DNA of 64,000 nucleotides from an uncultured Nitrososphaerota archaeon (lineage in GTDB: Archaea > Thermoproteota > EX4484-205 > JAAOZP01), in assembly GCA_964416155.1 (NCBI GenBank), contig CAYQCW010000004.1, positions 30,658 to 94,657 of the forward strand, in the 5' to 3' direction. The number at the start of each line of letters is the position of its first letter. Position 1 is the first letter of the stretch. Made by a program: the position numbers and the translations under genes. Below are positions 5,128 through 45,503 of this stretch, piece after piece. The notes under the pieces are model-generated. The model was not told the DNA's origin. It searched no databases and was given only the letters and a program-made list of their open reading frames with translations.

Positions 5128-7314
5128 TTGCCCAGATACAAAACAACAGAGGAAGTGCTACGGCTCTCGAAAAGCCTAGAGAACATTAGAAATATTTCTA
5201 TCTGTGCCCATGTTGACCACGGCAAGACAACTTTATCGGATTCTCTGCTCGCAGCCTCAGGATTGTTGTCGCCAACGGTTGCGGGCGAAGCGCTAGCACT
5301 AGACTACCTTAAAATTGAGCAGGAGAGACAGTTCACGTATAAGGCTGCAAACGTTTCGCTATATCATGAAATCGATGGAAAATCATATATTGTCAACCTG
5401 ATAGACACTCCTGGTCACATTGATTTTACGGGGAATGTTACTCGTAGTTTGCGTGCTATTGATGGTGCTGTTATTGTGGTTGATAGTGTTGAGGGTGTTT
5501 TGGTTCAGACCGAGACTGTTACTCGTCAGGCTTTGGAGGAGTATGTTCGTCCTGTGCTTTTTGTTAATAAGGTTGATCGTTTGATTCGTGAGCTTAGGCT
5601 TTCTCCACAGGAGGTTGAGAAGACTTTGCTTCGTATTATTGCTGATTTCAACAGGCTTGTTGAGCTTTATGGTCCTGAGGAGTTTAGGTCTGTGTGGCGT
5701 GTTGACGCGTTGAAGGGTATGGTTGCTTTTGGGAGTGCTAAGGATAGGTGGGGTTTCACTATTCCTATGATGCAGAAGGCTGGTTTGAAGTTTAGTGATA
5801 TTGTTTCCTCTTATGAGAAGGGTGGGCAGGCTGAGCTTTCTAAGGTTTTGCCTTTGCACGAGGCGGTTTTAAACATGGTTGTGAGGTTTCATCCTCCTCC
5901 TTCGGTTGCGCAGGCCTATAGGATTCCTAGGATTTGGAAGGGTGATTTGGATAGTGAGGTTGGGAGGGCGATGTTGAAGTGTGATCCAAACGGGCCTATT
6001 GTGATGGCTGCTTCGCATATTAGGGTTGATCCTCAGGCTGGTGTTGTTGCCACCGGCAGGCTTTTCTCGGGTACTGTTTACGAGGGTCAGGAGGTTTACT
6101 TGGTTAACTCTAGGAGTAAGGGTCGGGTTCAGCAGGTTTGCCTCTATATGGGTCCGCACAGGGAGGTTGTCGGCGCGATGTCTGCTGGTAATATTCCTGC
6201 TTTGTTGGGTTTGGAGGCTTCGAGGGCTGGTGAGACTATTACCACTGTGTCTGCTCTTGTTCCGTTTGAGAGCATTAGGTATGTTTCTGAGCCTGTTATG
6301 ACTATTGCTGTTGAGCCCCGGAATCCTGCTCAGCTTCCCGAGCTTATTGGCGCGATGCATAAGCTTAGTATTGAGGATCCGAATCTTAGGGTGACTATTA
6401 ACGAGCAGACTGGGGAGTATCTCTTATCGGGGATGGGTCAGCTTCATCTTGAGGTTGCTACCACGTTTATTCAGGAGGCTGGTATTCAGATCGTTACGTC
6501 TCGCCCAATCGTAATCTACCGTGAGAGTATTCGTAGGAAGGGTGGGCCTGTGATGGTGAGGTCTCCGAACGGGCATAATAAGATTATGATTGAGGTTGAG
6601 CCTCTTGAGCCGAGGGTTGTTGAGCTTGTCGCCACGGGTAAGATTGGAGAGTTTACTGACAGGAGGGAGGTTGCCAGGATGCTGAGGGAGTGCGGTTGGC
6701 CTGCTGACGAGGCTCGGGGTGTTGAGGCGGTTAGCGAGAGCTTCAGCCTTCTGGTTGACGCTACGAAGGGTGTTCAGAGGCTTGAACAGGTTTCCGGCAG
6801 CATTAGGATGGGCTTCATCGAGGCGGTTAACGAGGGGATTCTAGCTAGAGAGCCGGTTAGGGGTGTGAAGGTTAAGCTTCTCGACGCGACTGTTCACGAG
6901 GATCCTGCTCACCACGGTCCAGCGCAGATTATTCCAGCGGTTAGGAGGGCTACGCATGCTTCAATACTCTTGGCTGACCCTGTGATTCTCGAGCCTATTC
7001 TTAGGCTGGATGCTAGAACCGGTATGGATCAGGTTGGAAACGTGACTAGGGTTATTAGCCGTGCGAGGGGCAAGGTTCTGAACATTGAGCAGAAGGGCTT
7101 GATGACCTATATTGTCGGCGAGCTTCCCGCTGCTGAAAGCTTCGATCTTTCAGAGGTTTTGAGGAGCGCTACCGGTGGCAGGGTTTTCTGGGACACTAGC
7201 TTCGCAAGATGGGAGCCTGTTCCAAGCCAGCTTCTGGGTAACGTTGTTGCTGAAATAAGGAGGAGGAAGGGTCTTCCCGCTGAGGTTCCTAAGGTGGACG
7301 ACCTGATAGAGTAA
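5128..7314 (+). CDS. fusA: Translation elongation factor EF-2 (possibly the aEF-2 paralog)
   Basis: AHVDHGKTT, DTPGH, NKVD and domain IV HEDPAHHGPAQ; 728 aa. Confidence 0.95.
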   Translation: MPRYKTTEEVLRLSKSLENIRNISICAHVDHGKTTLSDSLLAASGLLSPTVAGEALALDYLKIEQERQFTYKAANVSLYHEIDGKSYIVNLIDTPGHIDFTGNVTRSLRAIDGAVIVVDSVEGVLVQTETVTRQALEEYVRPVLFVNKVDRLIRELRLSPQEVEKTLLRIIADFNRLVELYGPEEFRSVWRVDALKGMVAFGSAKDRWGFTIPMMQKAGLKFSDIVSSYEKGGQAELSKVLPLHEAVLNMVVRFHPPPSVAQAYRIPRIWKGDLDSEVGRAMLKCDPNGPIVMAASHIRVDPQAGVVATGRLFSGTVYEGQEVYLVNSRSKGRVQQVCLYMGPHREVVGAMSAGNIPALLGLEASRAGETITTVSALVPFESIRYVSEPVMTIAVEPRNPAQLPELIGAMHKLSIEDPNLRVTINEQTGEYLLSGMGQLHLEVATTFIQEAGIQIVTSRPIVIYRESIRRKGGPVMVRSPNGHNKIMIEVEPLEPRVVELVATGKIGEFTDRREVARMLRECGWPADEARGVEAVSESFSLLVDATKGVQRLEQVSGSIRMGFIEAVNEGILAREPVRGVKVKLLDATVHEDPAHHGPAQIIPAVRRATHASILLADPVILEPILRLDARTGMDQVGNVTRVISRARGKVLNIEQKGLMTYIVGELPAAESFDLSEVLRSATGGRVFWDTSFARWEPVPSQLLGNVVAEIRRRKGLPAEVPKVDDLIE

Positions 7315-7322
7315 GGGTTTCT

Positions 7323-7649
7323 CTAAGTTTTTGTTTCAACCGGCTTTATCATGGTCCAGTCTATTCTTTCAACGAGTTTTTTAAGGGTGGCTTTCAACTC
7401 CGTGATCGCGGCCTCCTTCCCCATTTGGCTCGCGTTCCAGGTTACGAAGGGAGGGTAGAAGCTTGCCTCCTTGAACTTGGGTTTTCCGTCGACTGTTTCA
7501 AACTTTATGTATCCTACTTCCCTCAGGTAGCAGTTGTCGTTCGGGCATAGGATGTCTATCTCGTTAAGCTCCTTCTTAAGATATAGGAGTTTAAACTCTG
7601 AAGCGTCTTCAATACTCCTGCCGCAGGGGCAGATTAAAGCTGGGCTCAT
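7323..7649 (-). CDS. Hypothetical small protein with CPCG and CPNDNC motifs (probable Zn binding)
   Basis: 108-aa ORF with two Cys pairs, divergent from the thermosome gene. Confidence 0.7.
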   Translation of the reverse strand: MSPALICPCGRSIEDASEFKLLYLKKELNEIDILCPNDNCYLREVGYIKFETVDGKPKFKEASFYPPFVTWNASQMGKEAAITELKATLKKLVERIDWTMIKPVETKT

Positions 7650-7757: not shown

Positions 7758-9413
7758 ATGGCTACTGCTATACCTGCAACAGTGGGTGGAACACCAGTAC
7801 TAATCCTTAAAGAGGGAAGCACTAGGACGAGGGGCAAGGAAGCCCAGAGGAACAATCTTAACGCTGCAATAACTCTCTCAGAAATAGTCCGTTCATCCCT
7901 TGGCCCAAGAGGAATGGACAAGATGCTCGTCGACTCCCTCGGGGACGTTACGATAACTAACGACGGCGCAACCATTCTGAAGGAGATGGAGATTGAGCAC
8001 CCGGCTGCGAAGATGATGGTTGAAGTCGCTAAGAGCACTGACGTTGAGGCTGGGGATGGAACAACCTCGGCGGTCGTCCTCGCTGGGGAGCTTTTGAAGA
8101 AGGCTGAGGAGCTTTTAGACATGGATGTTCATCCGACGATCATAGTGGACGGCTACAGGAGGGCCACCAGCATGGCGCTCCAGTTCCTGAAGGAGATTGC
8201 TCAAGAGGTTAAGCCGACGGACAGGGAGATCCTTAAGCTGATAGCTATGACTGCTCTGAGGAGCAAGGTTGTGAGGGAGTACAGCGACCAGCTTGCTGAG
8301 ATTGCTGTCGACGCTATTCTGAAGGTGGCGAGAGAGGAGAACGGGAAGTACATCGTTAGGCTCGACGACGTTAAGGTTGAGAAGAAGGCCGGTGGCTCAG
8401 TGATGGAGACCAAGCTGATAAACGGCATCGTTCTGGATAAGGAGATCGTCCACTCCGGAATGCCTAGAAAAATCGTTAACGCTAAAATAGCTATTCTAAA
8501 CAGCCCGCTTGAGATTGAGAAGACGGAGTTCGACGCTAAGATAAGCATCGAGAGGCCTGAGCAGATCAAGGCCTTCTTGGAGGAGGAGCAGAAGATCCTG
8601 AAGGAAATGGTTGACAAGATTGTTGAAGCAGGCGCCAACTTAGTGCTCTGCCAGAAGGGTATTGACGACATTGCTCAGCACTATCTTGCTAAAGCAGGGG
8701 TGATCGCTGTCAGAAGGGTTAAGGAGTCTGATATTGAGAAGGCTTCTAAGGCAACCGGTGCTAGGATTGTGACTAGCGTGAACGAGCTTACTAAGGACGA
8801 CCTGGGGTACGCCGGCTTAGTGGAAGAGAGGAAGGTCGGCGAGGACAAATGGGTCTTCATCGAGCAGTGCAAGGATCCGAGGTCTGTGACGATTCTGATA
8901 AGGGGTGGGACGGAGAAGATGGTGGATGAGGCTGATAGGGCTCTTCACGATGCTCTCTGCGTTGTGAAAGATGTGGTCACGTACCCGTACATAGTCGCCG
9001 GCGCTGGTGCTCCTGAGATAGAGGTTGCGATGAGAATAAGGAAGAAGGCTGAGACTATAGCTGGGAAAGAGCAGCTTGCGGTACTCAGGTTCACAGACGC
9101 GTTGGAGTCAATTCCTTCAGCGCTTGCTGAAAACGCTGGGATGGATCCGATAGACATAATCGCCGAGCTTAGGAAGCAGCATGAGTCTGGGAACAAGTGG
9201 TACGGTATCGACATCGTCTCCAAGAAGACCTCTGACAGCTGGGATAACAACGTTATTGAACCGCTGCTCGTGAAAGAGCAGATAGTGAAATCTGCTAGCG
9301 AGGCTGCAAGCATGATCCTGAGGATTGACGATGTGATTGCTGCGGGCAAGCTTAAGGAGAAGGGTCCTCCTAAGCCACCCTCTGAGGAAGGCGGTGTTGG
9401 AGAACTAGACTAA
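7758..9413 (+). CDS. thsA: Thermosome (group II chaperonin) subunit, canonical
   Basis: [28 protein letters not shown] all intact. Confidence 0.97.
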
Positions 9414-43892: not shown

Positions 43893-45503
43893 TTAGCTTT
43901 TCTCCTCAGTCTTGGGTTTCACAGTCAGTATTACTTCGTCGACACCTATTATCGTCGTAGCCAGTTCCACGGCGGAAACCAGCCAGCTTTTAACGACAAG
44001 ATATGGGTCGACTACTTTTCCGTCTAGATCGGCAACTTCTCTGCTGACAGCATCTATCCCATATCCTGAGCCATCTTTAGAATGCTTGCTGTTAAGCAGG
44101 GCCATCGTTGTCAGAGGCTTCATGCCAACGTTTGTGGCAAGGGTTCTTACAAGAGATTCGACGCTTTCGGCAAAAGCCTCGTATATCAGCCTATCCTCCT
44201 CAGACTGGTTCTCCGCGCTTCTTCTCAACGCGCGTCCTATCTCAAGTAGCTCCGCCCCGCCGCCAACAACGCATCTCGGATCCTTATACAGGCTTAGGAC
44301 TGCTGAGAGCGCGTGCTTAAACTCTCTCTCATACTCCTTCAAAAGATCCTCGTTAACGCTTCTCAGCAGTACTGAAACGGCCTTAGGCTCGCGGCAGCCC
44401 TCTACGAAAACTATTTTCTCGTTTTCGAAAACCTCCTCTTTGACGATGTCTGCCCTGCCAAGCTTGTCCTCAGAAATATCCTCCGGGTCTGAAACGATCT
44501 TCCCGTAGGTTGCCCTCTCAAGTCTCTCCATGTCTGATCTTTTAACCCGTCTCACCGCAGTGATACTGTTTTTATAGAGGTATTGCTGCGCGAGCTCGTC
44601 TATGCCCTTCTGGCAGAAAACAACGTTGGCCCCAGACTTAACTATCCTGTCAACCCTTTCCCTTATCATTTCCTCCTCTTCCCTAATGAACCCGCGGAGC
44701 TCCTCAGTAGTCTTAACCTCTATTTCAGTCGATATCTCCGTCTTCTTAACCTCCAGAGCATAGTCTATCAGCGCGATCCTAGCGTCTTTAACCGTTTTAC
44801 TCATGTTCGGGTGGACGACTTCCTTGTCGACTATAACACCGTTGACAAGCCTTGAGTCTAAAACCCCGTGTCCACGCTTCCTAACTATGCTCACCCAGTC
44901 TATGTCTGCGTAATACCCTCCATCCCTTTTTTCAACGATCCTTTCAGCGGTGCTCAGGACGATTTCAGCGATCCTCCTCCTCTCCTCCGGGGAAGAGAAG
45001 AAAGCGATCGCTGTTTCAGCGATCCTGTTCAAAGCCTCCCTGTCTGAAAAGTCAACCGGCTTAGCGTCCTTCTCGAGCTTTTCAAGAGCCTCGGTTAAAG
45101 CCTTGTTGAAGCCTCTAACTATTGAAATCGGGCTTATTCCCTGCTTGTACAGGCTGTACGCGTTTCTAACCAGGTCGCAGGTTAAAAGTATTAGCGAAGT
45201 CGTGCCGTCTCCGATTTCCTTCTCAAGAGCCTTAGCCGCGTCTATTATTATCTTGCCAACTGGGTGTTCAATGTTCGCCTCGCTGAGAATAGTGACTCCG
45301 GTCTTAGTCACCGTGACGTCTCCGACTGTGCCCACTAGGAGCTTGTTGAAGCCTCTTGGACCGTAGGCAGTTCTGACAACCTCGCCTATTACGAGCGACG
45401 CCACAATATTGTTTTCATAAGCCTCCTCCTTGCTTCTCCTCACGGTCGTTTCTTTAAGCACTATTGCTGGTCTACTCTGTCCATAGGCCATTTTTCGTAT
45501 CAC
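43893..45503 (-). CDS. Divergent thermosome subunit
   Basis: GPRGFNK, GDGTTS, NGVIVDKEVVHP, QKGIDE; catalytic Asp positions substituted. Confidence 0.93.
   Translation of the reverse strand: MIRKMAYGQSRPAIVLKETTVRRSKEEAYENNIVASLVIGEVVRTAYGPRGFNKLLVGTVGDVTVTKTGVTILSEANIEHPVGKIIIDAAKALEKEIGDGTTSLILLTCDLVRNAYSLYKQGISPISIVRGFNKALTEALEKLEKDAKPVDFSDREALNRIAETAIAFFSSPEERRRIAEIVLSTAERIVEKRDGGYYADIDWVSIVRKRGHGVLDSRLVNGVIVDKEVVHPNMSKTVKDARIALIDYALEVKKTEISTEIEVKTTEELRGFIREEEEMIRERVDRIVKSGANVVFCQKGIDELAQQYLYKNSITAVRRVKRSDMERLERATYGKIVSDPEDISEDKLGRADIVKEEVFENEKIVFVEGCREPKAVSVLLRSVNEDLLKEYEREFKHALSAVLSLYKDPRCVVGGGAELLEIGRALRRSAENQSEEDRLIYEAFAESVESLVRTLATNVGMKPLTTMALLNSKHSKDGSGYGIDAVSREVADLDGKVVDPYLVVKSWLVSAVELATTIIGVDEVILTVKPKTEEKS

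Follow-up and report, generated by a model that had tools for sequence, protein, structure and literature searches.

An order-wide remodelled elongation factor 2 tip in a hot-spring Thermoproteota lineage that probably lacks diphthamide

Introduction

Diphthamide, carried by a histidine at the domain IV tip of elongation factor 2 (EF-2), was for many years regarded as universal among archaea and eukaryotes and as important for maintaining the reading frame; the tip that bears it reaches into the decoding centre. Here we describe the archaeal EF-2 (aEF-2) gene at 5128-7314 (+ strand) of a 64,000-nucleotide stretch of archaeal DNA (the window; contig CAYQCW010000004.1, positions 30,658 to 94,657), in which the arginine beside the target histidine is replaced by a second histidine. 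We hold with good confidence that this gene is the sole functional aEF-2 of an order-level, hot-spring lineage of Thermoproteota that has lost the diphthamide synthesis (dph) pathway, that its target histidine is likely unmodified, and that its tip has been rebuilt and fixed by selection.

Loss of dph genes was described by Narrowe et al. 2018 (PMC6143161) in most Asgard archaea, in Korarchaeota, in Geoarchaea and in parabasalids. Among the archaea of that study, those with a single EF-2 and no dph genes (K. cryptofilum, Kor2/4 and Geoarchaea) keep three domain IV loops "strictly conserved", and remodelled aEF-2 tips (R702T, E660R/K, K584 unconserved; in dph-lacking Asgard archaea and Korarchaeota) co-occur with a paralogue, aEF-2p (PMC6143161). 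The remodelling was read as re-stabilisation of the loop. In the canonical protein K584 contacts tRNA, and E660 and R702 form a salt bridge (PMC6143161). Parabasalid eukaryotic EF-2 (eEF-2) carries G703N (PMC6143161). Only two incomplete Bathyarchaeota bins were flagged there, as doubtful (PMC6143161).

Results

The domain IV tip is altered at three positions throughout the order

The translation of 5128-7314 includes VHEDPAHHGPAQ. Its diphthamide loop reads HEDPAHHGPAQ (residues 590-600; 6895-6927, + strand), and CAC CAC GGT at 6910-6918 encodes the target His595 (6910-6912), His596 at the position of R702 (6913-6915) and Gly597 (6916-6918). An initial annotation of the window had singled out this HHG in place of HRG, and both its bases and its coordinates are exact. 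For tip residues we use Drosophila numbering after Narrowe et al. 2018 (PMC6143161), in which the loop is H701-R702-G703, a second loop spans S581-N586 and includes K584, and the third contains E660. The second loop reads SPNGHN (residues 479-484; 6562-6579, +), placing Gly482 at K584. The third reads QRLEQ (residues 550-554; 6775-6789, +), with Arg551 at Y/F657 and Gln554 at E660, the latter placed by its 42-residue offset upstream of R702 in an alignment (A1) that is gap-free there.

We compared the tip across the order, sampled as 26 genomes (57-94% complete) in four families (f1-f4). In our alignments three substitutions are invariant order-wide, R702 to His596 (HHG), K584 to Gly482 (SPNGHN) and Y/F657 to Arg551 (QRL), and this joint invariance is specific to the order. 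SPNGHN is present in all order sequences versus SPN[K/R]HN elsewhere, K584G being rare outside the order. The E660 position is Gln or Ala in f1 and f4 only and Glu in f2 and f3, and the target His595 is invariant. A back-translated pattern for HEDP[A/V]HHGP matched 23 of the 26 order genomes and 0 of 375 genomes from the rest of the phylum, and a reversed control pattern gave no match at all; the three order genomes without a match are bins of 57-82% completeness that yielded no EF-2. As far as these searches reach, HHG appears specific to this order.

His596 is strictly His across the four families, down to 65% EF-2 identity. Twelve order genomes encode it with CAT and eight with CAC, and because the codon varies synonymously while the residue stays constant, the comparison argues that His596 is maintained by selection. 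Contigs from two independent hot-spring metagenomes of another study (depth ~40x and ~27x) are identical over 6910-6918, and the closest variant to the HHG codons in them is a synonymous one, 6921 A>G. Such near-identical contigs also place the lineage in hot springs.

The initial annotation had further pointed to switch I, which does read EQERQFTYKAAN at 5317-5352 (+; residues 64-75). As a clue to an unusual EF-2 it loses its force: Thr70 is retained, and RQxT[IVY]K is normal in the phylum. The form RQFTYK is confined to f1 and f4; f2 and f3 have RQMTIK, which is common in the phylum and was read in 106 of 121 homologues (the query and its 120 closest database matches).

Diphthamide pathway genes are missing from the order

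The genome that the window comes from is a 1.99-Mb assembly of 30 contigs, 93.7% complete. Profile searches for Dph2 (PF01866), Dph5 (TIGR00522) and Dph6 (PF01902), all of which found their targets in archaeal control genomes, gave no match in it. Direct searches with the Dph2, Dph5 and Dph6 proteins of two genomes from outside the order, G027 and G052, were equally empty: tblastn against the whole assembly reached at best E 0.11 over 30 residues, and phmmer against all 9,746 six-frame open reading frames (ORFs) returned a single match at E 0.029 and 13 bits. The 25 other order genomes yielded one partial dph2 match, dph5 in 0/25 and PF01902 in 3/25; the corresponding figure for 15 phylum genomes outside the order, in the same sample, was 15/15 for each of the three. 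The PF01902 family includes members other than Dph6.

The lineage thus joins those described as dph-lacking, with no dph2, dph5 or dph6 found in the genome and essentially none in its relatives. Because these genes were not found in the genome and are essentially missing order-wide, the EF-2 of this lineage is most likely unmodified at His595, as judged from gene content. HHG might have turned out to be common in canonical, modified EF-2 of the lineage, which would have told against the initial annotation; it is common there, but the whole lineage is without dph genes. Since dph2, dph5 and EF-2 belong to archaeal completeness marker sets (PMC6143161), the completeness of these metagenome-assembled genomes (MAGs), including the value of 93.7%, is probably underestimated.

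The one Dph2-like ORF of the order lies in an f2 genome, G017 (locus L198, contig G017:C82, 2110-2865, - strand). It encodes 252 amino acids, scores 79.7 bits against PF01866 (model positions 77-224) and shares 34% identity with Dph2 over 133 residues. The GC content of its contig matches that of the bin, the contamination of which is 7%. The ORF could be a relic or one half of a split gene, or it could stem from contamination.

The lineage is probably EX4484-205 ("Brockarchaeota") of the GTDB taxonomy, a class with a single order; one paper equates EX4484-205 and Brockarchaeota. The class apparently holds one order only, and an order-level search returned the same 26 genomes. Its closest named protein relatives carry the label "Thermoproteota archaeon", and a protein 97% identical to the one described here (P0002) is encoded on contig JAWCLQ010000007.1 of assembly GCA_038850585.1.

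The gene encodes a single, orthologous aEF-2

The initial annotation had left the choice between a paralogue and an unmodified EF-2. The 728-residue protein contains all five Pfam domains of the family (GTP_EFTU, GTP_EFTU_D2/EF-G_D2, EFG_III, EFG_IV and EFG_C). Against TIGR00490, the equivalog model for aEF-2, it reaches 857.9 bits where the cut-off is 738.45, with residues 4-718 aligned to positions 3-719 of a 720-position model. The GTPase motifs AHVDHGKT, DTPGH and NKVD (G1, G3 and G4) are intact, as is the switch I threonine, and the top PDB match by sequence is the archaeal EF-2 8hl1 (E 5.6e-268, residues 8-725). It is the sole EF-2-like gene in its assembly, two further weak matches covering a partial G domain only. 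Across the 26 order genomes there is at most one EFG_C domain per genome, always within EF-2, and a full-length query found one EF-2 gene per genome, two of them split by a contig end or frame break.

A maximum-likelihood (ML) tree built from 72 EF-2 sequences groups the order in a single clade (support 100), within TACK aEF-2 and with ordinary branch lengths. The ratio of nonsynonymous to synonymous substitution rates (dN/dS) is 0.06-0.09 against five congeners, indicating strong purifying selection. Score, five-domain architecture, single copy and orthologous placement all agree on membership of the TIGR00490 family. The canonical tip motifs HxDxxHRG, SPxKHN and E660, which here read HEDPAHHG, SPNGHN and QRLEQ with the target His retained, are a conserved feature of aEF-2 and no formal criterion of membership; published dph-lacking aEF-2s deviate from them too (PMC6143161).

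From the equivalog score, the single copy, the tree placement and the dN/dS values we conclude that the gene encodes a single, orthologous and working ribosomal translocase and not an aEF-2p-type paralogue. The paralogue half of the initial annotation is therefore rejected, on a score of 857.9 against 738.45 bits, a sole EFG_C gene and a position among TACK aEF-2 orthologues; a second EF-2, which it had proposed to look for, does not appear in the genome. Its unmodified half stands, on gene content. A hot-spring metatranscriptome contig (194 nt, two differences) spans 6686-6871, with the tip loop outside it, and is no evidence of transcription.

The tip differs from those of described dph-lacking lineages

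Like the aEF-2s of Asgard archaea and of Kor1/3, the protein described here is the working translocase in a genome without dph2, dph5 and dph6, keeps H701, has R702 replaced and K584 unconserved, and carries a basic residue in the third loop. The details differ. R702 becomes Thr in those lineages and His here; their basic residue arises through E660R/K, whereas here a new Arg stands at Y657 (QRL) and E660 is replaced by Gln or Ala or remains Glu. Theirs occurs together with aEF-2p, whereas no second EF-2-family gene is present in the 26 order genomes, and the present lineage is a class of Thermoproteota.

K. cryptofilum, the marine Korarchaeota Kor2/4 and Geoarchaea resemble it in having a single EF-2, no paralogue and a genome without dph genes, but their three loops are canonical, whereas here three tip positions are changed order-wide. 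Parabasalid eEF-2 likewise lacks the pathway and has a substitution beside the target His that was proposed to mimic part of diphthamide; it is eukaryotic, however, and G703 rather than R702 is changed, to Asn rather than His. The paralogue aEF-2p shares with the present protein its EF-2 family membership and an altered domain IV tip. Unlike the present protein, which is the sole copy and retains H701, aEF-2p coexists with aEF-2, is without key tip residues that diphthamide modification and translocation require, and is regarded as inactive in translocation (PMC6143161).

Tip remodelling extends to Bathyarchaeia-like families with and without dph genes

Among the 121 homologues the loop reads HRG in 28, HFG in 26, HRT in 24, HHG in 16 (the query included), HTG in 10, HIG in 8, HYG in 5, HCG in 3 and HVG in 1. 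Non-Arg loops outside the order are mostly Bathyarchaeia-labelled. Over these homologues and ~95 genome-derived sequences, all but two non-Arg loops go with QRL where other EF-2s have Q[Y/F]L; the two outliers have QSL (P0029, the same as G089) and QHL (P0120, the same as G084). K584 is mostly Lys or Arg in the non-Arg bathyarchaeal proteins.

For the class to which G027 belongs, we compared the loop state of 101 genomes, each at least 85% complete, with their dph2 and dph5 content. Canonical HRG loops accompany dph genes, and the only two HRG genomes without a dph2 match still have dph5 fragments. Non-Arg loops occur in both settings. In family f6 (HTG), 10/10 genomes carry dph2 and 9/10 carry dph5, and G052 (family f23, HFG) has both (loci L021 (G027), L128, L199 and L200 (G052)); the f6 genome G027 combines its non-Arg loop with Dph6-like genes as well as dph2 and dph5. 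Neither dph2 nor dph5 is found in f38 (0/5: G079, G084, G089, G093 and G097, of which G079 is a single-contig 1.98-Mb genome), in G058 (f30), in G041 (f18) or in G047 (f23), and G141 and G142 of f30, tested for dph2 only, are without that gene too. The EF-2 loops of dph2-less bathyarchaeal genomes read HFG, HYG, HCG or HTG, mostly with QRL (loci L119, L121, L125, L130-L132 and L140). One bathyarchaeal order mixes canonical, dph2-positive families (f32, f35 and f36) with remodelled ones, in which dph2 is found in 0/5 (f38), 0/3 (f30) and 1/2 (f23). Wherever a sampled genome lacks dph2 as well as dph5 and its EF-2 loop could be read, the tip is remodelled.

These families and the order share the loss of R702 and the Arg at Y657, and f38, f30, f18 and part of f23 share the absence of dph2 and dph5. 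They differ in that position 702 is variable there and an invariant His here, that K584 is mostly retained as Lys or Arg, and that f6 and G052 keep dph2 and dph5. Loss of R702 alone is thus not diagnostic of an unmodified His, and the replacement of Arg, which the initial annotation had taken as a clue to an unmodified EF-2, does not serve as one. The Arg was probably lost before the dph genes, and the genomes with a remodelled tip and an intact pathway (f6 and G052) look like intermediates, or at least candidates for them. The dph losses in Bathyarchaeia-like families look like a further, unreported set.

Separately, f6 and G052 raise the question of whether Dph2 can modify a loop without R702; a literature search on the Dph2-EF-2 interface at the loop Arg returned nothing usable.

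In the free ML tree the order stands apart from the non-Arg clades of Bathyarchaeia, though support for this is weak (81-91). A tree with all 42 non-Arg EF-2s in one clade was not rejected by the approximately unbiased (AU) test (p-AU 0.574, lnL +3.2), the group having been chosen after the tree and the trait columns kept in the alignment. The sampled genomes of the phylum fall into three states: a canonical tip with dph genes; a remodelled tip with dph genes (f6 and G052); and a remodelled tip without them (the order, f38, f30, f18 and G047). Tentatively, and at rather less than even confidence, we suggest that relocation of the Arg (R702 to non-Arg, Y657 to Arg) was a pre-adaptation that made diphthamide dispensable, and that the order evolved its own frozen solution (His596, Gly482 and Arg551), replacing the function of diphthamide without aEF-2p.

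Two further features of EF-2 surfaced in the same comparison. The HRT loops, found in 24 of the 121 homologues, read HRT-YAQ for HRG-PAQ (G703 to Thr) and are Nitrososphaerales-labelled (P0035, P0039, P0074, P0103, P0106 and 19 others); G703 is the position changed in parabasalids too. Some Bathyarchaeia-like EF-2s are ~500 residues longer than the rest: P0121 (1267 residues), a 1270-residue frame on G091:C41 and a 1200-residue frame on G086:C11. P0121 carries precomputed matches to PF14528 and PF14890, which we take to be LAGLIDADG and intein-splicing domains, and these long genes apparently contain inteins.

Start codon and gene neighbourhood

The gene begins with TTG (5128-5130, +), preceded by ~12 nt by a Shine-Dalgarno-like GGTG motif with the conserved form AAGGTG(T). 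All 12 members of genus g1 that were compared have TTG at this position, and in 11 of them an in-frame stop precedes it by 1-5 codons; families f4 and f2 have ATG there, as does the outgroup G027. On this comparison the TTG start is judged to be genuine.

The initial annotation correctly reported that the neighbours are not rps12, rps7 or EF-1a; they encode a HerA-like ATPase, an AAA/DUF4143 protein, unknown small ORFs, a thermosome subunit and an ABC ATPase. Its view of this location as a clue did not survive comparison. The gene for ribosomal protein uS7 lies on contig C3 and EF-2 on C4 of this genome, and in eight other genomes (five of them single-contig, most with a canonical loop and dph genes) the two are 79-884 kb apart or on separate contigs. 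Because EF-2 is unlinked from uS7 in all eight, lying away from the str cluster is the usual arrangement in this phylum and does not set the present gene apart.

A Cys-rich ORF of 108 amino acids (7323-7649, -) is oriented convergently to EF-2 and lies immediately upstream of the thermosome gene; it has four cysteines (CPCG...CPNDNC) and 49 invariant columns over f1-f4 and G040. All across the order it adjoins EF-2, and it does so too in G040, a genome with dph genes and a canonical loop. Neither Pfam nor NCBIfam gave a match at E <= 10. Its AlphaFold2 (AF2) model is confident (pLDDT 87.3) and has four strands and two helices and no fold match in the PDB (best Foldseek E 0.21), and in the ESM Atlas it falls only into "hypothetical protein" clusters of Bathyarchaeota. 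We considered and rejected a link to diphthamide through Dph3/Kti11, on the lack of a family or fold match and on its place beside EF-2 in a dph-positive genome. The thermosome (Cpn60/TCP-1) gene at 7758-9413 (+) is a conserved downstream neighbour of EF-2 across the order. It is one of three thermosome paralogues in the genome, with 38-43% mutual identity, the others lying at C4 ~74586-76127 (window ~43929-45470) and C1 ~226844-228391.

Discussion

The changes at the tip suggest how translocation might proceed on a bare histidine. With dph2, dph5 and dph6 lost from the lineage, the conserved His595 would be left without its modification. Arg551 in the third loop could then take over stabilisation of the loop from the lost E660-R702 salt bridge, much as R702T together with E660R/K has been explained in Asgard archaea (PMC6143161). 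The imidazole of His596, beside the bare His595, may supply part of the polar or positive character of diphthamide at the codon-anticodon helix, a role parallel to that proposed for G703N in parabasalids (PMC6143161). Gly482, standing in for a Lys that contacts tRNA, would alter that contact. Together these changes would preserve the fidelity of translocation without the modification and without an aEF-2p paralogue.

Other explanations of the tip fare less well, to differing degrees. That the codon at 6913-6915 is really CGC, turned into CAC by a fault in sequencing or assembly, is scarcely credible: nothing was found in its support, the independent metagenome contigs agree with the assembly, and 23 order genomes encode His at this position through both CAC and CAT. 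Hardly better placed, and in our view very improbable, is an aEF-2p-type paralogue with a non-translocase function, the canonical EF-2 being missing from the assembly. Its altered diphthamide loop and its distance from ribosomal protein genes would suit such a paralogue, but an unlinked EF-2 is normal in the phylum, the protein passes the aEF-2 equivalog cut-off, retains H701 and all GTPase motifs and sits on a short branch among orthologues, and none of the 26 order genomes has a second EF-2-family gene. His595 might instead still be modified, either because dph genes were systematically missed in assembly or binning or because unrecognised, non-homologous enzymes do the work. The strict conservation of His595 and of most of the loop speaks for this, as do the Dph2-like fragment in G017 and the PF01902 matches in three order genomes. 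We nevertheless think it improbable: the 26 MAGs, independent of one another and 57-94% complete, lack three unlinked genes, when 15/15 genomes outside the order have all of them, direct protein searches of the whole assembly came back empty, and H701 is also conserved without dph genes in Asgard archaea, Korarchaeota and Geoarchaea (PMC6143161).

A more substantial alternative, which we still consider unlikely, treats the HHG tip as an inherited marker with no compensating role. Relocation of the Arg would have come earlier, while diphthamide was still made, perhaps as a single event in an ancestor, or a donor, that the order has in common with some Bathyarchaeia, and the dph genes would have been lost later for unrelated reasons. 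Family f6, which combines HTG and QRL with dph2 in 10/10 and dph5 in 9/10 genomes, and G052, which combines HFG and QRL with both genes, fit this well, and the single-clade tree of all 42 non-Arg EF-2s is not rejected and is even slightly better (p-AU 0.574, lnL +3.2); K. cryptofilum and Geoarchaea, dph-less yet with canonical loops (PMC6143161), point the same way. A mere marker, however, sits poorly with the contrast at position 702, which drifts among F, Y, C and T in the dph-lacking bathyarchaeal families and is strictly His in the four families of the order, or with the order-wide fixation of K584G, rare elsewhere. That the tip is remodelled in each sampled genome that lacks both dph2 and dph5 and gave an EF-2 loop suggests instead a functional link.

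Our preferred reading, a functional aEF-2 with a likely unmodified His595 and a tip rebuilt under selection, has its own difficulties. The absence of diphthamide is read from the absence of genes in MAGs and not at the level of the protein. The Dph2-like ORF of G017 would mean that the loss is possibly incomplete in f2, unless it is a relic or contamination, and PF01902 is matched in 3/25 order genomes, though in a family that has non-Dph6 members too. Because f6 (HTG) and G052 (HFG) keep dph2 and dph5 intact beside non-Arg loops, the change of R702 is by itself neither a consequence nor a proof of dph loss. The contacts assigned to Arg551 and His596 are proposed from residue positions, not from inspected coordinates. 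Finally, K. cryptofilum and Geoarchaea keep canonical loops without dph genes (PMC6143161), and since some dph-lacking archaea manage in this way, compensation may not be needed at all.

In the literature open to our search we found no paper combining "Brockarchaeota" and "diphthamide", and among papers naming "diphthamide" and "Bathyarchaeia" none addresses dph loss or tip remodelling in its title and abstract. The lineage is apparently a further, unreported dph-lacking class, and tip remodelling with repeated dph loss in neighbouring Bathyarchaeia-like families apparently forms a wider pattern that has gone undescribed.

The lineage fits none of the published patterns: it has a single EF-2 and no paralogue, yet a remodelled tip, in which R702 is replaced by another residue (His) and the new basic residue stands elsewhere (at Y657, not E660). 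Both earlier associations, of single-copy, dph-less genomes with a canonical tip and of a remodelled tip with aEF-2p only (PMC6143161), are broken here. Why some lineages dispense with diphthamide is an open question on which this lineage bears. Because three states of tip and pathway coexist in one phylum, the order of events and the residues that may substitute for diphthamide become directly testable, by mutagenesis in a tractable archaeon.

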